DNA of 10,919 nt from a virus (lineage: Duplodnaviria > Heunggongvirae > Uroviricota > Caudoviricetes). Position numbers and translations under genes: made by a program. The stretch's first letter is position 1; every line of letters begins with the position of its first letter. Positions 3,866 through 10,919 of the stretch are shown here, piece by piece. The notes below the pieces were generated by a model. The model did no database searches. It was given only the letters and a program-made list of their open reading frames with translations, and was not told the DNA's origin. Location of the stretch: the IMG/VR virus record IMGVR_UViG_2558860161_000005; one strand, given 5' to 3'.

Positions 3866-4367
3866 AATTCCATCCAGCTTTTTGTTGGTATTGCTGTCGA
3901 TACGCAAGCTTGAAAGCAATTGCTTTTTCTATAAGTTCGTCAGTTTCACGATCCACTACGGCAGGATCAGCAAAAAGCAGTCCGGACTCCACCACATCGC
4001 CATATTCTTTGTTTAACCCGGCGATCATGCACGTGATGCTTTTTCCGTCAGTAATTTCACGATACAACCTGAAATCACTAATCCGGATAGCCTCCATAAT
4101 CGCAGGCACTAGCGCCGTGAACTTTTCACGCTTATCCCTGGTGTCGATAGCCTTCCAGCGTTCGAATATCTTCACTCGATTAACACCAAGCGCTCGCTGA
4201 TCAACCGCGCCACCTTCATCTGTGACACGCTGAACATCGATGTTCGGGCGCTCTTTCAAAGCCCAGAATGCTTCAGTGATTAATATCGTCGCCTGCTCCT
4301 GTGTCATTCCTGGTCGACATATCCAGGCATCCAGAGCCTCACGAACCTGTTCAGGAGTGATTTTCAT
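3846..4367 (-). CDS. 173-aa early-operon protein in the cII/YdaT position; possibly a YdaT-like regulator
   Basis: ATG at 4367-4365; translation MKITPEQVREALDAWICRPGMTQEQATILITEAFWALKERPN...; overlaps the dicC stop by 17 nt and the initiator start by 20 nt, suggesting translational coupling. Family assignment is tentative. Confidence 0.6.
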   Translation of the reverse strand: MKITPEQVREALDAWICRPGMTQEQATILITEAFWALKERPNIDVQRVTDEGGAVDQRALGVNRVKIFERWKAIDTRDKREKFTALVPAIMEAIRISDFRLYREITDGKSITCMIAGLNKEYGDVVESGLLFADPAVVDRETDELIEKAIAFKLAYRQQYQQKAGWNYEPSFC

Positions 4368-4581
4368 TGTTCAACCACCCCGCCCGCTTCGTCTTACGAT
4401 ATTCATCATAAACTTTGGGATCATACTGAAGCTCCCCGCCAGATGCCTCCTGTAGACGCATCGCGCGACCTTCGGGAACTAAATCCCCTTTCCAGCTATA
4501 AAGCGAAGCCAAACGAATACCTGCTGCTTGTGCAAGTTTTGTTTTTGAACCGAAATACAAAAGAGCGTCAGTTTTAAGCAT
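4351..4581 (-). CDS. dicC: DicC, Cro-like regulator of the Qin-type immunity region (76 aa)
   Basis: ATG at 4581-4579 with SD AGGTG 7 nt upstream; translation MLKTDALLYFGSKTKLAQAAGIRLASLYSWKGDLVPEGRAMRLQEASGGELQYDPKVYDEYRKTKRAGWLNNENHS; the 76-aa length and divergent arrangement with dicA match E. coli Qin dicC as I recall it. Confidence 0.85.
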   Translation of the reverse strand: MLKTDALLYFGSKTKLAQAAGIRLASLYSWKGDLVPEGRAMRLQEASGGELQYDPKVYDEYRKTKRAGWLNNENHS

Positions 4582-4595
4582 TTAAAACACCTTTA

Positions 4596-4662
4596 TTGTT
4601 AGTCATAACTAACAAGATAGATGTTAACAAAAACATAGTCAATACGATTTAGCATTAGCTAA
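4596..4662. promoter_or_regulatory. dicC-dicA divergent promoter/operator region with two palindromic putative DicA operators
   Basis: Perfect palindrome ttgttagt-cata-actaacaa at 4596-4615 and imperfect palindrome ttagc-atta-gctaa at 4649-4662, immediately upstream of the dicA ATG (4665). Confidence 0.55.
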
Positions 4663-4664
4663 CT

Positions 4665-5072
4665 ATGGAAACAAAAAATTTAACTATCGGCGAACGCATC
4701 AGGTATCGTCGGAAAAACCTCAAACACACCCAAAGGTCTCTTGCTAAAGCCCTGAAAATCTCCCATGTGTCTGTATCACAATGGGAACGGGGTGATAGTG
4801 AACCTACAGGGAAGAACCTTTTTGCCCTCAGCAAAGTATTGCAATGCTCACCAACATGGATTCTATTTGGCGATGAAGACAAGCAACCAACACCACCTGT
4901 TGAGAAGCCAGTTGCCTTATCCCCCAAAGAACTAGAGCTCCTTGAGCTGTTTAATGCACTGCCAGAATCAGAACAGGATACCCAGCTCGCCGAAATGCGA
5001 GCTCGAGTAAAAAACTTCAATAAACTCTTTGAAGAATTACTAAAAGCCCGTCAGCGGACAAATAAAAGATAA
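4665..5072 (+). CDS. dicA: DicA, HTH (XRE-family) repressor of the dicB operon (135 aa)
   Basis: ATG at 4665, stop TAA at 5070-5072; translation METKNLTIGERIRYRRKNLKHTQRSLAKALKISHVSVSQWERGDSEP... matches E. coli DicA as I recall it (135 aa). Confidence 0.9.
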   Translation: METKNLTIGERIRYRRKNLKHTQRSLAKALKISHVSVSQWERGDSEPTGKNLFALSKVLQCSPTWILFGDEDKQPTPPVEKPVALSPKELELLELFNALPESEQDTQLAEMRARVKNFNKLFEELLKARQRTNKR

Positions 5073-5106
5073 CATCATCAATGAGTTATCTTTTACCACA
5101 TCAATT

Positions 5107-5161
5107 ATGTTAGCTATAGCATACAAAATCACTTGACCGATATGTTAGTCATGGCTAATCT
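5107..5161 (+). promoter_or_regulatory. Putative dicB-operon promoter overlapped by DicA operator-like sites
   Basis: -35 TTGACC at 5133-5138, 17-nt spacer, -10 TAATCT at 5156-5161. Operator-like atgttagctatagcatacaa at 5107-5126 (palindromic core gctatagc) and ttagtcatggctaa at 5145-5158, sharing the TGTTAG half-site with the intergenic operators. Confidence 0.5.
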
Positions 5162-5238
5162 TGTTTGCATCAACACACCGCACGGTGTTCTCAGCAAACA
5201 GTTCCGCTACCCCAGCGTTAAGGGGAAATGAGGTCCGC

Positions 5239-5394
5239 ATGGATACTATCGATCTTGGCAACAACGAATCTCTGGTGTACGGCGTGTTTCCAAACCAGGA
5301 CGGTACGTTCACCGCGATGACGTATACCAAAAGCAAAACGTTTAAAACCGAAAATGGTGCCCGTCGCTGGCTGGAAAGAAACTCAGGTGAGTGA
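5239..5394 (+). CDS. ydfA: YdfA (51 aa), dicB-operon small protein of unknown function
   Basis: ATG at 5239 with SD GAGG 7 nt upstream; translation MDTIDLGNNESLVYGVFPNQDGTFTAMTYTKSKTFKTENGARRWLERNSGE. The track ORF 5161..5394 is the same frame extended to an upstream alternative start. Confidence 0.8.
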   Translation: MDTIDLGNNESLVYGVFPNQDGTFTAMTYTKSKTFKTENGARRWLERNSGE

Positions 5395-6112: not shown

Positions 6113-6170
6113 TTTCTGGTGACGTTTGGCGGTATCAGTTTTACTCCGTGACTGCTCTGCCGCCCTTTTT
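6113..6170 (+). ncRNA. dicF: DicF small RNA (53-nt core 6113-6165 plus U-tail), antisense inhibitor of ftsZ translation processed from the dicB-operon transcript
   Basis: Sequence tttctggtgacgtttggcggtatcagttttactccgtgactgctctgccgccc followed by ttttt matches DicF as I recall it; it lies between ydfC and dicB as in Qin. Exact ends are approximate. Confidence 0.8.
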
Positions 6171-6339: not shown

Positions 6340-6528
6340 ATGAAAACGTTATTACCAAACGTTAATACGTCTGAAGGTTGTTTTGAAATTGGTGTCACTA
6401 TCAGTAACCCAGTATTTACTGAAGATGCCATTAACAAGAGAAAACAAGAACGGGAGCTATTAAATAAAATATGCATTGTTTCAATGCTGGCTCGTTTACG
6501 TCTGATGCCAAAAGGATGTGCACAATGA
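6340..6528 (+). CDS. dicB: DicB (62 aa), MinC-dependent cell-division inhibitor
   Basis: ATG at 6340 with SD GAGG (6327-6330); translation MKTLLPNVNTSEGCFEIGVTISNPVFTEDAINKRKQERELLNKICIVSMLARLRLMPKGCAQ. The track ORF 6235..6528 carries a spurious N-terminal extension. Confidence 0.85.
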   Translation: MKTLLPNVNTSEGCFEIGVTISNPVFTEDAINKRKQERELLNKICIVSMLARLRLMPKGCAQ

Positions 6529-6716
6529 ATTCAGCATTTGTGCTTGTTCTGACAGTTTTTCTTGTTTCCGGAGAGCCAGTTGATATTGCAGTCAGTGTTC
6601 ACAGGACAATGCAGGAGTGTATGACTGCAGCAACCGAACAGAAAATTCCCGGTAACTGTTACCCGGTCGATAAAGTTATTCACCAGGATAATATCGAAAT
6701 CCCGGCAGGTCTTTAA
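6525..6716 (+). CDS. ydfD: YdfD (63 aa), small membrane protein reported to cause lysis when overexpressed
   Basis: ATG at 6525 overlaps the dicB stop (ATGA); SD AGGA 9 nt upstream; translation MNSAFVLVLTVFLVSGEPVDIAVSVHRTMQECMTAATEQKIPGNCYPVDKVIHQDNIEIPAGL with a hydrophobic N-terminus. Confidence 0.8.
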   Translation: MNSAFVLVLTVFLVSGEPVDIAVSVHRTMQECMTAATEQKIPGNCYPVDKVIHQDNIEIPAGL

Positions 6717-6808
6717 AACAGTTCCGTAATAAATATCCGGTTTCATTCTTATATGCCAGCAATGGCAGGGATTTGTTCATCCTTAAATCTGTCATGAGGT
6801 TAAAACAA

Positions 6809-9280
6809 ATGAGTAAAGTCTTTATTTGCGCCGCTATTCCTGACGAACTGGCAACAAGGGAAGAAGGCGCTGTGGCTGTAGCCACAGCCATTGAAGCTGG
6901 CGACGAACGCCGTGCTCGAGCAAAATTTCACTGGCAATTCCTGGAACATTATCCGGCTGCTCAGGACTGCGCTTATAAATTTATTGTCTGCGAGGATAAA
7001 CCTGGCATACCCCGCCCTGCCCTCGATTCATGGGATGCTGAATATATGCAGGAAAACCGCTGGGATGAGGAGTCTGCTTCTTTTGTCCCGGTTGAGACTG
7101 AATCCGATCCGATGAACGTCACTTTTGACAAGCTGGCCCCTGAAGTACAGAACGCTGTCATGGTTAAGTTCGACACATGTGAAAACATCACCGTTGATAT
7201 GGTTATTAGCGCACAGGAATTGTTGCAGGAAGACATGGCAACATTCGACGGACATATCGTTGAAGCGTTGATGAAAATGCCAGAAGTTAACGCCATGTAT
7301 CCGGAGCTTAAGTTGCACGCCATTGGGTGGGTTAAGCATAAATGTATTCCTGGTGCTAAATGGCCCGAAATTCAGGCAGAGATGCGCATCTGGAAAAAAC
7401 GTCGCGAAGGTGAACGCAAGGAAACCGGAAAATACACGTCTGTTGTTGATCTCGCCCGCGCCAGAGCCAATCAACAGTACACTGAAAATTCAACAGGAAA
7501 AATCAGCCCGGTCATTGCTGCCATTCATCGCGAATACAAGCAGACATGGAAAACACTGGATGACGAACTGGCCTACGCTCTCTGGCCTGGTGATGTGGAT
7601 GCCGGAAACATTGACGGCAGCATCCATCGCCGGGCAAAAAATGAAGTTATCGACAACGACCGCGAAGACTGGAAGCGTATCTCGGCATCAATGCGCAAAC
7701 AGCCTGATGCCCTTCGCTACGACCGCCAAACTATTTTTGGCCTTGTCCGTGAGCGTCCGATCGACATTCACAAAGATCCCGTAGCACTGAACAAATATAT
7801 CTGCGAATACCTGACGACAAAGGGCGTGTTTGAGAATGAAGAAACAGACCTGGGCACTGTTGATGTTCTCCAGTCATCAGAAACACAAACTGATGCAGTG
7901 GAAACTGAGGTATCTGATATCCCAAAAAATGAAACCGCGCCGGAAGCTGAACCATCTGTAGAGCGTGAGGGGCCGTTCTATTTCCTCTTCGCAGATAAGG
8001 ACGGAGAAAAATACGGTCGCGCAAACAAACTTTCTGGTCTGGATAAGGCACTGGCTGCTGGCGCCACTGAAATCACAAAAGAAGAATATTTTGCCCGAAA
8101 AAATGGCACATACACGGGCTTACCGCAAAATGTAGATACCGCTGAAGATTCAGAACAACCAGAGCCGATAAAAGTTACCGCTGACGAAGTAAACAAAATT
8201 ATGCAGGCAGCCAATATCATCCAGCCTGACGCCGATAAGTTGCTTGCTGCATCACGTGGTGAATTTGTTGAAGGGATTAGTGACCCGAATGATCCGAAAT
8301 GGGTTAAGGGGATCCAGACCCGCGATTCTGTGAACCAGAACCAGCATGAATCGGAACGGAACTACCAAAAAGCGGAACAAAACAGCCCAAATGCGTTACA
8401 AAACGAGCCAGAAACGAAACAGCCTGAATCAGTGGCGCAACAGGAAGTGGAAAAAGTCTGCACCGCCTGCGGTCAGACCGGCGGCGGCAACTGCCCTGAT
8501 TGTGGCGCGGTAATGGGCGACGCAACATACCAGGAAACATTCGATGAAGAGTATCAGGTTGAAGTTCAGGAAGATGATCCGGAGGAAATGGAAGGCGCTG
8601 AACATCCACACAAGGAGAACACTGGCGGCAATCAGCATCACGATAGCGATAATGAAACTGGCGAGACGGCAGATCACTCAATTAAGGTGAACGGTCATCA
8701 AGAAATCACATCCACCAGCAGGACGTGTGACCATCTAATGATCGACCTTGAAACCATGGGAAAAAATCCTGATGCCCCGATCATCTCAATAGGTGCAATA
8801 TTTTTCGATCCGCAAACCGGAGATATGGGACCGGAATTTAGTAAGACTATCGATCTGGAAACTGCTGGCGGAGTCATTGATCGGGACACCATTAAATGGT
8901 GGCTTAAGCAATCACGCGAAGCGCAATCTGCCATTATGACCGATGAAATCCCGTTAGATGATGCACTGTTACAATTGCGGGAATTTATCGACGAAAACTC
9001 CGGTGAATTTTTTGTTCAGGTCTGGGGAAATGGAGCCAACTTCGACAACACGATTTTGCGCCGTTCATACGAACGGCAGGGGATCCCCTGCCCGTGGCGT
9101 TACTACAACGATCGCGATGTACGCACAATCGTTGAGCTGGGGAAAGCCATAGACTTCGATGCCAGAACGGCTATTCCATTCGAAGGTGAGCGCCATAATG
9201 CACTTGATGACGCCCGTTACCAGGCAAAATACGTTTCAGTTATCTGGCAAAAACTGATCCCGAGTCAGGCTGATTCTTAA
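6809..9280 (+). CDS. Full-length YdfE-like protein (about 823 aa): N-terminal domain of unknown function, acidic linker with a Cys4 zinc ribbon, C-terminal DnaQ-like DEDDh 3'-5' exonuclease domain
   Basis: Likely start ATG 6809 (SD GAGG 6797-6800); the track ORF begins at TTG 6773, and ATG 6794 is an alternative. Exonuclease motifs: D-L-E from 8744, WGNGANFD, HNALDDARY. Zinc ribbon CTACGQTGGGNCPDCG at about 8459-8506. The N-terminus MSKVFICAAIPDELATREEG... is what I recall for the K-12 ydfE pseudogene product, which is truncated there. Confidence 0.8.
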   Translation: MSKVFICAAIPDELATREEGAVAVATAIEAGDERRARAKFHWQFLEHYPAAQDCAYKFIVCEDKPGIPRPALDSWDAEYMQENRWDEESASFVPVETESDPMNVTFDKLAPEVQNAVMVKFDTCENITVDMVISAQELLQEDMATFDGHIVEALMKMPEVNAMYPELKLHAIGWVKHKCIPGAKWPEIQAEMRIWKKRREGERKETGKYTSVVDLARARANQQYTENSTGKISPVIAAIHREYKQTWKTLDDELAYALWPGDVDAGNIDGSIHRRAKNEVIDNDREDWKRISASMRKQPDALRYDRQTIFGLVRERPIDIHKDPVALNKYICEYLTTKGVFENEETDLGTVDVLQSSETQTDAVETEVSDIPKNETAPEAEPSVEREGPFYFLFADKDGEKYGRANKLSGLDKALAAGATEITKEEYFARKNGTYTGLPQNVDTAEDSEQPEPIKVTADEVNKIMQAANIIQPDADKLLAASRGEFVEGISDPNDPKWVKGIQTRDSVNQNQHESERNYQKAEQNSPNALQNEPETKQPESVAQQEVEKVCTACGQTGGGNCPDCGAVMGDATYQETFDEEYQVEVQEDDPEEMEGAEHPHKENTGGNQHHDSDNETGETADHSIKVNGHQEITSTSRTCDHLMIDLETMGKNPDAPIISIGAIFFDPQTGDMGPEFSKTIDLETAGGVIDRDTIKWWLKQSREAQSAIMTDEIPLDDALLQLREFIDENSGEFFVQVWGNGANFDNTILRRSYERQGIPCPWRYYNDRDVRTIVELGKAIDFDARTAIPFEGERHNALDDARYQAKYVSVIWQKLIPSQADS

Positions 9281-9352
9281 TGTTCAACTGTCGCCGGTTG
9301 TGACTGGTATTCTGCAACCGGCGCTCGTCTGATGTAAGAGATAAAGAAATCG

Positions 9353-9604
9353 ATGAGCGAAGTAATCATGATTGTCTCTCCCGGCAAATGGGTATCCGAA
9401 GAGCAGTTAATTGCGCTGAAAGGAATAAAAAAAGGTACGTTAAAAAAGGCCCGGGAAAAATCGTTTATGGAAGGAAGGGAATATAAGCATGTCGCTCATG
9501 ACGGTATGCCATGGGATAACAGTCCATGCTTTTACAACCTGGAAGAAATTGATCGCTGGATTGAGCGCCAGGCATCAGCAAGACCAAGACGTCATCTTAC
9601 TTGA
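9353..9604 (+). CDS. Excisionase-like small DNA-binding protein (83 aa), immediately upstream of int
   Basis: ORF MSEVIMIVSPGKWVSEEQLIALKGIKKGTLKKAREKSFMEGREYKHVAHDGMPWDNSPCFYNLEEIDRWIERQASARPRRHLT; basic; position and size typical of a lambdoid xis; an alternative start is ATG 9368. Confidence 0.65.
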   Translation: MSEVIMIVSPGKWVSEEQLIALKGIKKGTLKKAREKSFMEGREYKHVAHDGMPWDNSPCFYNLEEIDRWIERQASARPRRHLT

Positions 9605-9623
9605 CTAAAAGCCACACTAACTA

Positions 9624-10919
9624 ATGAGAGAAGTTGAAATGAAATATCCGACAGGCGTGGAAAACCATGGAGGGAAATTACGTATCTGGTTTGTTTATAA
9701 AGGCGTAAGAGTCAGGGAAAACCTGGGGGTTCCTGACACAGCAAAAAACAGGCGCGTTGCAGGTGAGCTACGCGCCTCTGTTTGTTACGCAATAAAAACT
9801 GGTGTTTTCGACTATGCAAAACAGTTTCCCTCCTCACGCAATCTGGAAAAATTTGGTGAGACTCGACAAGATTTAACCATAAAAGAACTGGCTGAAAAAT
9901 TTCTGGCACTGAAAGAAACTGAAGTCGCAAAAACATCACTCAACACATACCGTGCCGTCATCAAAAATATCCTGAGCATAATCGGTGAAAAAAATCTTGC
10001 CTCATCGATTAATAAAGAAAAATTACTGGAGGTTCGTAAAGAGCTACTGACTGGATACCAGATCCCCAAAAGTAACTATATTGTTACACAACCAGGGAGA
10101 TCGGCTGTAACTGTAAATAATTACATGACAAATCTTAACGCCGTGTTCCAGTTTGGTGTTGATAACGGTTACCTGGCAGATAACCCGTTTAAGGGGATCT
10201 CGCCATTAAAGGAATCAAGAACCATTCCGGATCCTCTTTCGCGGGAGGAATTCATCCGTCTTATCGATGCGTGCAGAAATCAGCAAGCCAAAAATTTATG
10301 GTGTGTTTCTGTTTATACTGGCGTTCGCCCTGGTGAGCTGTGTGCACTTGGATGGGAGGACATAGATCTGAAAAATGGAACAATGATGATCAGGAGAAAT
10401 TTAGCAAAAGACCGTTTCACGGTACCAAAAACACAGGCGGGAACCAATCGGGTCATTCATCTTATTAAGCCAGCAATCGACGCTCTCCGGAGTCAGATGA
10501 CATTAACGAGACTGAGCAAAGAGCATATCATTGATGTTCACCTCAGAGAGTATGGCAGAACAGAAAAACATAAATGCACCTTTGTTTTTCAACCTGAAGT
10601 GTCAGCGAGAGTAAAAAATTATGGTGACCATTTTACCGTTGACTCAATAAGGCAGATGTGGGACGCAGCGATAAAACGTGCCGGACTCCGCCATCGAAAA
10701 TCATATCAGTCGAGACATACTTATGCCTGCTGGTCGCTGACAGCTGGTGCTAATCCGGCATTTATAGCAAACCAGATGGGCCATGCAGATGCGCAAATGG
10801 TATTTCAGGTATACGGAAAATGGATGTCTGAAAACAATAATGCACAGGTAGCTTTGTTAAATACACAGTTAAGCGAGTTTGCCCCAACCATGCCCCATAA
10901 CGAAGCAATGAAAAATTAA
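9624..10919 (+). CDS. Phage tyrosine integrase (lambda-Int family); probable counterpart of Qin intQ, here apparently intact
   Basis: 431-aa ORF from ATG 9624 (the second ATG at 9639 has the better SD). N-terminal arm-type DNA-binding-like region; C-terminal catalytic region with SRHTYACW (His-x-x-Arg) and a C-terminal Tyr in GHADAQMVFQVYGKW. The stop TAA is the last three bases of the window. Confidence 0.85.
   Translation: MREVEMKYPTGVENHGGKLRIWFVYKGVRVRENLGVPDTAKNRRVAGELRASVCYAIKTGVFDYAKQFPSSRNLEKFGETRQDLTIKELAEKFLALKETEVAKTSLNTYRAVIKNILSIIGEKNLASSINKEKLLEVRKELLTGYQIPKSNYIVTQPGRSAVTVNNYMTNLNAVFQFGVDNGYLADNPFKGISPLKESRTIPDPLSREEFIRLIDACRNQQAKNLWCVSVYTGVRPGELCALGWEDIDLKNGTMMIRRNLAKDRFTVPKTQAGTNRVIHLIKPAIDALRSQMTLTRLSKEHIIDVHLREYGRTEKHKCTFVFQPEVSARVKNYGDHFTVDSIRQMWDAAIKRAGLRHRKSYQSRHTYACWSLTAGANPAFIANQMGHADAQMVFQVYGKWMSENNNAQVALLNTQLSEFAPTMPHNEAMKN

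Follow-up and report, generated by a model that had tools for sequence, protein, structure and literature searches.

The four palindromes that bracket dicA belong to the immunity switch of the Qin prophage, as its previously described repressor-binding sites; the identification is correct, not new. We consider it very probable that they serve as operators in a P22-type lambdoid immunity switch of a Qin-like prophage. Closest to it among known systems is the dicC-dicA-dicBp region of the K-12 Qin prophage, with its operators Oc, Om and Oa and the dicBp operators (Bejar et al. 1986, 1988; Yun et al. 2012; Ragunathan et al. 2023). Because the switch was worked out between 1986 and 2024, confirming it provides no new biology. 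What is added here is a map of each site in the coordinates of the window and of K-12, evidence for selection on all four strong sites and for their joint switching of specificity with the repressor (rather than for Oc alone), an exact positional match to the operators of P22, and the decay of the middle operator in the Qin lineage. It is here that control is exerted to hold DicF, DicB and YdfD silent in most E. coli; derepression of the region leads to filamentation and phage resistance.

Identity of the region

The window, i.e., the whole stretch of 10,919 nucleotides that was analysed, is a Qin-like E. coli prophage, identical to K-12 MG1655 at the four sites (S1 to S4) and at the TTGACC-N17-TAATCT promoter. 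Across the 660 bp that separate the starts of dicC and ydfA, only two differences with K-12 are present, none of them in the sites or the promoter. S1 corresponds to K-12 positions 1647865–1647884 and is identical. The immunity region of the 48.7-kb phage PhiR42_1 is also identical to that of the window. The proposal made from the sequence alone, that DicA silences dicC and the operon encoding DicF, DicB and YdfD, is the published Qin model, transferred to a region with the same sites and promoter as K-12.

The gene order dicC, dicA, ydfA, ydfB, ydfC, dicF, dicB, ydfD is shared with K-12 Qin, which is more decayed. The window prophage retains genes for O-like replication, a full-length YdaT-like protein, a RecE-like exonuclease, an integrase and an excisionase. 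Gene annotation was transferred from a 99.9% identical E. coli record, in which the coordinate minus 1201 is the window coordinate. The features of the region are as follows.

4351–4581, minus strand: dicC, Cro-like repressor of 76 amino acids (annotation in the 99.9% identical record; Pfam P22_Cro, E=1.8e-11)
4596–4615, no strand: S1, the published Oc, OR1-like; perfect palindrome TTGTTAGT-CATA-ACTAACAA, matrix score 22.4
4614–4642, minus strand: dicCp, PR-like promoter; TTGACT at 4642–4637, 17-bp spacer, TATCTT at 4619–4614 (consensus scan)
4621–4640, no strand: degenerate middle site, probably the published Om, OR2-like; ATGTTAAC-AAAA-ACATAGTC
4646–4665, no strand: S2, probably the published Oa, OR3-like; GATTTAGC-ATTA-GCTAACTA, abutting the dicA ATG, matrix score 18.3
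4650–4655, plus strand: putative -10 (TAGCAT) of the PRM-like dicA maintenance promoter, at the position of TAAGAT in P22 PRM
4665–5072, plus strand: dicA, short CI/C2-like repressor of 135 amino acids (annotation; Pfam HTH_3, E=1.3e-16)
5107–5126, no strand: S3, OL2-like auxiliary operator; ATGTTAGC-TATA-GCATACAA, at about -62 to -43 of dicBp, matrix score 14.6
5133–5161, plus strand: dicBp, PL-like promoter; TTGACC at 5133–5138, 17-bp spacer, TAATCT at 5156–5161
5142–5161, no strand: S4, OL1-like operator; ATGTTAGT-CATG-GCTAATCT, covering the dicBp spacer and -10, matrix score 17.2
5169–5238, plus strand: structured 5' leader of the dicB operon, belonging to the transcription unit and not to the operators
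5239–5394, plus strand: ydfA, first gene of the repressed operon (annotation; Pfam DUF1391)
6114–6165, plus strand: DicF small RNA (Rfam RF00039, 76.7 bits, E=6e-16)
6340–6528, plus strand: dicB, cell-division inhibitor (transferred annotation, record 7541–7729)
6525–6716, plus strand: ydfD, lysis protein (transferred annotation, record 7726–7917)

Four dyads of one specificity

The four sites are 8-4-8 dyads of a single specificity, with S1 and S2 located between dicC and dicA, and S3 and S4 downstream of dicA. Each operator would measure 18–20 bp, (T)TGTTAGY-N4-RCTAACA(A), a helix-turn-helix dimer reading the two half-sites across the 4-bp spacer. The sequence-only reading had four operator-like palindromes bracketing dicA, and all are present where it placed them; the perfect 8-4-8 palindrome of S1 can be read directly in the sequence. 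It also gave them a common TGTTAG(T/C) half-site, which does not apply to S2, in which the half-sites are ATTTAGC and AGTTAGC and only TTAGC is in common.

The half-site TGTTAGY by itself occurs four times, with 2.3 occurrences expected, and is not significant (42 of 200 shuffles reach four). The dyad TTAGY-N4-RCTAA, allowing zero or one mismatch, matches the window exactly three times, at S1, S2 and S4. A half-site matrix trained solely on Citrobacter and Serratia sites was run on the 10.9-kb window and ranked S1, S2, S4 and S3, in that order, as the top four 20-mers, the next one scoring 10.1. In the shuffled sequences, matches of at least 14.6 occur at a mean of 0.036, and none of 500 shuffles yields four. 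A motif search for further copies had been suggested as a check; the matrix scan finds no fifth copy in the window. When spacers of 0–10 bp and single half-sites were scanned, nothing stood out besides the four sites and the Om remnant.

The dicC side

S1 is identical to the Oc sequence 5'-TTGTTAGTCATAACTAACAA-3' cloned in pHL1105 (PMC3441716). DicA binds Oc in vivo and in crude-extract mobility shift assays (EMSA), with a single A-to-C change abolishing the binding; S1 is the only site for which direct DicA binding has been demonstrated (PMC3441716). From Oc, DicA represses dicC and activates dicA (PMC3441716). The former was part of the earlier model; the latter it had missed. A high-copy Oc clone is toxic by titration (PMC3441716), and a titration effect is reported independently in the Reg-Seq preprint. 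The same preprint locates the DicA site at -8 to +12 of dicCp, which would put the start of dicCp at around 4607, within S1. The dicC start was mapped by 5'RACE, and Oc was said to overlap the -10 (PMC3441716). Combining the promoter scan with the Reg-Seq placement, S1 overlaps both the -10 and the start of dicCp. Variation of S1 among E. coli alleles is almost confined to the Y/R and spacer positions.

The dicA side

The core of S2 (4649–4662) is TTAGC-ATTA-GCTAA, and its arms are symmetric at six of eight positions across the 20-mer. It is nearly invariant in 30 unique E. coli alleles, with a single variable core position, in two of them. In every relative, S2 is found at offset -16, and its specificity class switches along with that of the other sites. 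The middle site is exactly halfway between S1 and S2 (25 + 25 bp), and only its left half-site scores (5.7). Good middle sites are present at the corresponding offset in the related loci L009 and L011 and apparently, as judged by eye, in L097. The position suggests that 4621–4640 is Om, and S2 is probably Oa. Cloned singly, Om and Oa did not show DicA binding in vivo (data not shown in PMC3441716). If Oa is S2, binding of DicA to it may need cooperativity or a high DicA concentration, or the site may chiefly serve DicC.

A consensus dicA promoter was not found in PMC3441716. In P22, the annotated 5' nucleotide of the PRM transcript is 4 nt before the c2 ATG; by analogy, dicA transcription may start near 4661, giving an almost leaderless mRNA. 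DicA residues 7–71 match the N-terminal domain of P22 C2 (E=8e-20) and the structures 1ADR and 2R1J (E about 1e-19). An S24 peptidase domain is not present in DicA: Pfam shows helix-turn-helix families only, and the C-terminal domain of C2 is absent in the alignment. This agrees with PMC10448788.

The dicBp side

S4, with core TTAGT-CATG-GCTAA (5145–5158), covers the spacer and the entire -10 of dicBp, as the sequence-only reading had it. S3 had likewise been assigned to the promoter, but ends 6 bp upstream of the -35. The position of S4 is conserved, and its class switches with the repressor allele. The arms of S3 are symmetric at five of eight positions; the right arm is degenerate (TTGTATGC), and the left arm is the best half-site of the window, scoring 11.6. 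In L003, L004, L005 and L009, a site is likewise found at the S3 position, 35–36 bp upstream of S4. Published descriptions give three operators per side; in the window sequence, the third of each set is degenerate, which leaves two strong sites per side: 4621–4640 keeps one recognisable half-site, and the half-site and spacer scan of the window reveals no OL3-like site of comparable score.

The -10 of dicBp, TAATCT, is weak, with three of six matches to TATAAT, and dicBp was therefore missed by the consensus promoter scan. No variation of the -35 is seen in 40 unique alleles, and the offsets of the hexamers are kept in L004, L005, L009 and L010. Deletion of dicA increases dicBp-lacZ expression 22-fold, and deletion of dicC has no effect (PMC10448788). 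Transcription would start at about 5168–5169. From the transcript sizes in PMC10448788, an RNase III cut at 813/814 and a 190-nt product would place the start at about 5163, while the 1,146-nt ydfABC-dicF transcript would begin inside dicA; these sizes are mutually inconsistent and were not used.

The leader that follows is nearly invariant among E. coli alleles, and per-sequence folds contain two hairpins that are kept in relatives despite base changes. It matches nothing in Rfam and does not resemble the HK022 PL/PR put region.

Constraint and operator classes

Constraint was assessed among unique E. coli alleles, 30 for the upstream and 40 for the downstream region. Core positions are variable in 7 of 48 cases, compared with 16 of 32 for Y/R plus spacer positions (Fisher p=9e-4) and, at other intergenic positions, 40 of 99 (p=1.4e-3), p-values that overstate independence, as the alleles are related to each other. 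A scan of viral contigs returned only alleles 93–100% identical and served the constraint test, not deep divergence. A scan of genome contigs with a single protein gave six loci, and the divergent relatives were taken from a phage collection.

All relatives have sites at -66 and -16 relative to the ATG, and at +42 to +112 past the stop codon. At these conserved offsets, four mutually exclusive operator classes are found in eight loci, the operator specificity co-varying with the repressor allele.

Class TTAGY: window, Citrobacter, Serratia
Class TTAGR: PPompW, BUCT709, Klebsiella phage (in which the two PL sites have TTAAG in one arm)
Class TTGAG: mEp460_ev081
Class YTAAC-N4-GTTAR (inverted TAAC type): phiES15

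In mEp460_ev081, the leader is 95% identical from about 5165 onwards, the operators are unrelated and the repressor is 57% identical. This natural swap indicates that the sites travel with the repressor gene and not with the operon.

A probable two-repressor switch

By ChIP-seq, the strongest DicC peaks flank dicA on either side, with the palindrome TT(A/C/T)G...C(G/A/T)AA (PMC11430063). DicC probably recognises the same sites as DicA, making the region a bistable DicA/DicC switch with two repressors. The earlier view of the sites as DicA operators stands; their probable use by DicC had been missed. Bistability depends on dicC (PMC10448788). Comparison of the DicC recognition helix with the operator class revealed no clear covariation in six sequences. 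The papers on gSELEX and on genetic interactions give no information on DicA at the level of sites.

In the proposed mechanism, S1 extends over the last part of the -10 and the start site of dicCp, where bound DicA would block transcription of dicC and stimulate that of dicA. DicA bound to S4, in the spacer and -10 of dicBp, would exclude RNA polymerase and keep ydfABC-dicF-dicB-ydfD silent, S3, 35 bp upstream, presumably being an auxiliary site resembling P22 OL2. S2 borders directly on the dicA start codon and lies across the likely dicA promoter; here DicC, and perhaps excess DicA, may shut off dicA, as happens at OR3. The occupants of S2 and S3, the start sites of dicA and dicBp and any cooperativity between sites are what we infer in this scheme.

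It is unlikely that S1 and S4 are the only working operators and that S2 and S3 are decaying relics of a three-operator ancestor, kept by descent. The lack of DicA binding to Oa or Om singly (PMC3441716), the degenerate right arm of S3 and the clear decay of the middle site in the Qin lineage point in this direction. However, the TTAGC-N4-GCTAA core of S2 is perfect and nearly invariant, S3 contains the best half-site in its left arm and the DicC ChIP signal is present on both sides of dicA. In addition, in relatives whose repressors are only 52–63% identical, S2 and S3 follow S1 and S4 in their specificity class, a pattern that drift would not maintain.

Still less probable, in our judgement, is that the sites are mainly DicC targets, DicA acting chiefly via S1 and repressing dicBp through another determinant. 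The fit of the DicC motif to the sites, the location of its strongest peaks and the demonstration of direct DicA binding at S1 only are compatible with this, but dicBp is derepressed by deletion of dicA and not of dicC, and S4, 88% identical to S1 over 16 nt, is placed over the -10. Moreover, in both P22 (as annotated in its record) and lambda, the two repressors use all operators in common. Chance palindromes in AT-rich intergenic DNA, or targets of nucleoid proteins (H-NS/Cnu, Fis), can be dismissed almost completely, and for S1 this has already been refuted. The TGTTAGY count is not significant, DicA binding at the dicA promoter is influenced by Cnu-H-NS and a further binding activity is present in crude extracts; yet four such dyads never arise in 500 shuffles, the core positions are constrained, the specificity follows the repressor allele and a single-base change in S1 abolishes DicA binding.

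Possible recognition code and DNA loop

The relatives also suggest, tentatively, a simple recognition code for the P22 C2-like helix-turn-helix family; we regard this as possible but doubtful. Ser-Val at DicA residues 36–37 of the recognition helix (SHVSVSQ) goes with a pyrimidine as the innermost base of the half-site (TTAGY). Thr-Ile (A/SHVTISQ in PPompW, BUCT709 and the Klebsiella phage) or Ala-Ile (SNVAISQ in P22) goes with a purine or a TTAAG core (TTAGR/TTAAG). If it is residues 36–37 that determine the immunity specificity, DicA should be re-targeted by exchanging them. In a second reading, a DNA loop around dicA, mediated by DicA, may bridge the OR-like and OL-like pairs, which lie only about 0.5 kb apart, despite the missing CI-type C-terminal domain.

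Comparison with P22, lambda and Gifsy

According to Pfam, dicA and dicC are a divergent pair of a Cro/C1-type helix-turn-helix repressor and a small Cro-like gene, as in the P22-type switch. The DNA-binding domain of P22 C2 is about 59% identical to DicA residues 7–71. P22 operators are 18-bp dyads with a 4-bp spacer, like those of the window, reading ATTTAAG-N4-CTTAAAT where the window has TGTTAGY-N4-RCTAACA. The positions of OR1 and OR3, and of OL2 and OL1, correspond to those of S1 and S2, and of S3 and S4. OR2 and OR3 are centred at -34.5 and -9.5 relative to the repressor ATG, as are 4621–4640 and S2, and both OR3 and S2 end in AACTATG. The PR -35 (AGTCAA on the plus strand) is common to both. 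The PL -35 context, CACTTGACC, and its 6-bp gap to the operator core are the same in dicBp; OL1 is within the PL spacer and -10, like S4 in dicBp, and OL2 and OL1 are spaced by 35 bp, as are S3 and S4.

P22 differs in its half-site (TTAAG, instead of TTAGY) and recognition helix (SNVAISQ, instead of SHVSVSQ). C2 has 216 amino acids and DicA 135, lacking the C-terminal peptidase/oligomerisation domain. In the window, OR has a degenerate middle site and OL a degenerate third one, and there is no homologue of gene 24 or N after the leader.

Lambda shares with the window the divergent repressor and cro genes, the common operators over PR, PRM and PL, the positive autoregulation by the repressor and a bistability dependent on the Cro-like protein (PMC10448788). 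Lambda CI has no significant sequence match to DicA, for which the matches listed are P22 C2, 434 Cro and one other. Lambda operators are unrelated in sequence to those of the window, and OL and OR are 2.4 kb apart, compared with about 0.5 kb here. RecA-dependent cleavage, as in lambda, is absent for DicA, which is instead relieved by the Qin antirepressor Rem (PMC10448788). In this respect, DicA may be compared with GfoR and GfhR of Gifsy, which are likewise non-cleavable and controlled by antirepressors, an analogy of function only.

Operator sites flanking dicA

Four dyads of 8-4-8 architecture bracket dicA, two on the dicC side (S1 and S2) and two on the ydfA side (S3 and S4), where the sequence-only reading had placed four palindromic sites; inspection of the sequence and a script both confirm them. 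The features of the region are as follows (genes from the annotation of the best match).

4351-4581, minus strand: dicC
4596-4615: S1, TTGTTAGT-CATA-ACTAACAA, a perfect palindrome
4649-4662 (20-mer 4646-4665): S2, core TTAGC-ATTA-GCTAA
4665-5072: dicA
5107-5126: S3, ATGTTAGC-TATA-GCATACAA, five of eight arm positions symmetric
5133-5161: dicBp, promoter of the dicB operon, TTGACC (5133-5138), 17 bp, TAATCT (5156-5161)
5145-5158 (20-mer 5142-5161): S4, core TTAGT-CATG-GCTAA
5239-5394: ydfA
6114-6165: DicF (Rfam match)

A TGTTAG(T/C) half-site had also been proposed as common to all four, which does not hold for S2, whose arms (ATTTAGC and AGTTAGC) lack TGTTAGY. Alone, this half-site is within chance in the window (four matches against 2.3 expected). 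The dyad TTAGY-N4-RCTAA, with no or one mismatch, occurs three times in the window, only at S1, S2 and S4; what stands out is the dyad arrangement and not the half-site count. A half-site matrix was derived solely from the sites of one Citrobacter and one Serratia relative; when all 20-mers of the window were ranked with it, S1 (22.4), S2 (18.3), S4 (17.2) and S3 (14.6) came out on top, the next scoring 10.1. Shuffled sequences contained on average 0.036 matches of this quality, and none of 500 contained four. The motif search suggested in the sequence-only reading, done with the matrix, with other spacers and with single half-sites, revealed no further operator copies in the window and added only a degenerate element at 4621-4640. 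That there are four such sites is confirmed and far exceeds chance expectation.

Identity of the region and published evidence

The 1.4 kb surrounding the sites share 99.9% identity with E. coli chromosomes on which dicC, dicA, ydfA, ydfB and ydfC are annotated; in the best match the annotated order is a YdaT-family gene, dicC, dicA, ydfA, ydfB, ydfC, dicB, ydfD, exonuclease, excisionase and integrase. Over the 660 bp that separate the starts of dicC and ydfA, only positions 4832 and 5236 differ from K-12 MG1655, both outside the operator sites and promoter, so experiments on K-12 Qin apply directly to the window.

The operator Oc, cloned by Yun et al. 2012 as 5'-TTGTTAGTCATAACTAACAA, matches S1 exactly. 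It conferred DicA-dependent repression in vivo and a DicA-dependent shift in crude extracts, and one A-to-C change abolished binding; in high copy, clones of the dicA-dicC promoter region were obtained only with Oc mutations (PMC3441716). The same work mapped the dicC start, described Oc as overlapping the dicC -10 and found that dicA transcription requires DicA, while Om and Oa, the other two operators predicted in the dicA-dicC region, showed no DicA binding as single clones (data not shown; PMC3441716). A Reg-Seq preprint reports the same titration effect and a DicA site at -8 to +12 of dicCp, the dicC promoter. Ragunathan et al. 2023 observed 22-fold derepression of dicBp-lacZ upon dicA deletion, spontaneous dicC-dependent switching in about 1% of cells and relief of repression via the antirepressor Rem, not RecA, and cite three operator sequences per intergenic region (PMC10448788). 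DicC ChIP-seq (2024 preprint) gave peaks flanking dicA on both sides and a palindromic motif, TT(A/C/T)G in one half and C(G/A/T)AA in the other (PMC11430063).

With S1 being the published Oc and dicBp derepressed 22-fold without dicA, the regulation proposed from sequence, DicA repressing dicC and the dicB operon, is the accepted model, to be extended by the Cro-like DicC, which uses the same sites. The first descriptions of the system date from 1986, with refinements until 2024; our additions are modest: a site-by-site map, comparative support for all four sites, a decayed middle operator and a tentative link to the recognition helix.

The Escherichia phage PhiR42_1 (PV340562.1), a 48.7-kb genome from E. 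coli ECOR13, encodes a 100% identical DicA; its S1, S2 and S4 are identical to those of the window and S3 is near-identical. The prophage in the window still has a RecE-like exonuclease, an excisionase and an integrase (6773-10919), and an O-like replication gene is also kept. Given PhiR42_1 and this gene content, the immunity type occurs in elements more complete than K-12 Qin. A 2.5-kb contig labelled Collinsella sp. MAG (JAIIUG010000151.1), with a 99% identical DicA and all four operators, is most likely misbinned E. coli prophage DNA.

Promoters and the middle operator

On the minus strand, dicCp reads TTGACT-17-TATCTT (4642-4614); combined with the Reg-Seq site, the dicC start then falls within S1, at 4607. 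By position, Oa, adjoining dicA, should be S2, and Om the element at 4621-4640 (ATGTTAAC-AAAA-ACATAGTC). Since Oa reportedly did not bind when cloned singly, DicA occupancy of S2 is not established. The middle element lies at the exact midpoint of S1 and S2, at the offset of P22 OR2, and only its left half-site is recognisable; the 50 bp between S1 and S2 equal two 25-bp operator steps. At the same offset the site is better preserved in the O157 prophage PPompW and in phiES15, and by eye in a Klebsiella phage; an OR2-like site seems to have been lost in the Qin lineage.

A perfect 11-bp inverted repeat (TAAAAGATAAC ... GTTATCTTTTA, 11-nt loop, 5063-5095) spans the dicA stop codon. It could be a weak terminator (GAUAAC/GUUAUC stem, then UUUU) shielding dicBp from dicA read-through; neither the Citrobacter nor the Serratia loci conserve it.

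Leader of the dicB operon

The 5' leader (5169-5238) is conserved and structured, beginning with the motif CATCAA, followed by:

5175-5188: hairpin 1, ACACCG-CA-CGGTGT
single-stranded box, nearly invariant: CAGCAAACAGTTCCGC
5210-5225: hairpin 2, CCCC-AGCGTTAA-GGGG

Both hairpins are preserved despite base changes in Citrobacter, Serratia, phiES15 and BUCT709. Hairpin 2 of BUCT709 (GCCCG-GAAAGA-CGGGC) resembles lambda boxB, and P22 nutL occupies the equivalent position. The leader matches no Rfam family and does not resemble the HK022 put region, and no N-like arginine-rich protein is encoded downstream. A role in antitermination or RNA processing is possible.

Constraint and concerted changes of specificity

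Eighty viral-contig loci (DicA 93-100% identical) and a few others yielded 30 unique alleles for the upstream and 40 for the downstream side. In the 20-mers of the four sites, variation affects 7 of 48 core positions (TGTTAG/CTAACA), against 16 of 32 outer, Y/R and spacer positions (Fisher p=9e-4) and 40 of 99 positions elsewhere in the intergenic DNA (p=1.4e-3), these p-values being indicative only as the alleles are related. Common S1 variants affect the outer base 4596, Y 4603, R 4608 and spacer positions 4604 and 4607.

Relatives with DicA-like repressors 73% to 52% identical keep the dyad offsets, with core starts near -66 and -16 relative to the ATG and a further two sites +42 to +112 past the stop codon, and fall into mutually exclusive half-site classes.

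TTAGY: window, Citrobacter (L004), Serratia (L005)
TTAGR-N4-YCTAA: O157 prophage PPompW (L009), phage BUCT709 (L010), Klebsiella phage (L097; TTAAG in one arm of both PL sites)
TTGAG-N4-CTCAA: mEp460_ev081 (L096)
inverted YTAAC-N4-GTTAR: phiES15 (L011)

mEp460_ev081 matches the window at about 95% identity across the leader (from about 5165) and into the beginning of ydfA, while its operators are unrelated, its repressor is 57% identical, and repressor and cro belong to another specificity class. The sites are thus tied to the repressor gene and not to the controlled operon, which is the expectation for immunity-specific operators. The mosaic junction lies at about 5161-5165, directly after the dicBp -10.

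The recognition helix (DicA residues 33-39) is SHVSVSQ with TTAGY operators (window, L004, L005), A/SHVTISQ with TTAGR/TTAAG operators (L009, L010, L097) and SNVAISQ in P22, with TTAAG. Tentatively, in this small sample of partly related sequences, residues 36-37 may set the Y/R preference at the innermost half-site position.

Proposed regulation

DicA dimers would read two TGTTAGY half-sites over a 4-bp spacer. At S1, as shown in the literature, DicA blocks the dicCp -10 and start and stimulates dicA. Repression of dicBp is likewise published, and S4 is its probable site, where DicA would cover the spacer and -10. S3, at about -62 to -43, the expected position of the RNA polymerase alpha subunits, probably reinforces S4. 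S2, over the likely dicA promoter and start, would be a natural place for shut-off of dicA by DicC, perhaps also by excess DicA, in view of the OR3 analogy, the DicC repression of dicA and the ChIP peak.

Chance palindromes or nucleoid-protein sites are excluded by the shuffles, the core constraint and the published point mutant. One rival view takes S2 and S3 for relics, but the concerted specificity switches across relatives argue that both are functional. The sites could also be mainly DicC targets, but the way dicBp responds to deletion of dicA and of dicC speaks against this, as does S4 being 88% identical to S1.

Comparison with phage P22

Residues 7-71 of DicA match the solved DNA-binding domain of P22 C2 (E about 1e-19). 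The peptidase and oligomerisation domain of C2/CI is absent from DicA, hence induction via Rem or DicA instability, not RecA, as in the literature. The P22 maintenance transcript starts 4 nt upstream of the ATG, and by analogy the dicA mRNA is suggested to be nearly leaderless, starting near 4661, the -10 being TAGCAT (4650-4655). P22 OR1, OR2 and OR3 are centred 57.5, 34.5 and 9.5 bp upstream of the c2 ATG (annotated record), and S1, the 4621-4640 remnant and S2 59.5, 34.5 and 9.5 bp upstream of the dicA ATG; OR3 and S2 share the ending AACTATG. P22 PL consists of CACTTGACC, 6 bp, the OL1 core and the -10 TAAATT, and dicBp of CACTTGACC, 6 bp, the S4 core and the -10 TAATCT; the OL2-OL1 distance of 35 bp is exactly the S3-S4 spacing. 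On a positional basis, S1, S2, S4 and S3 are the counterparts of OR1, OR3, OL1 and OL2, with dicCp PR-like and dicBp PL-like.
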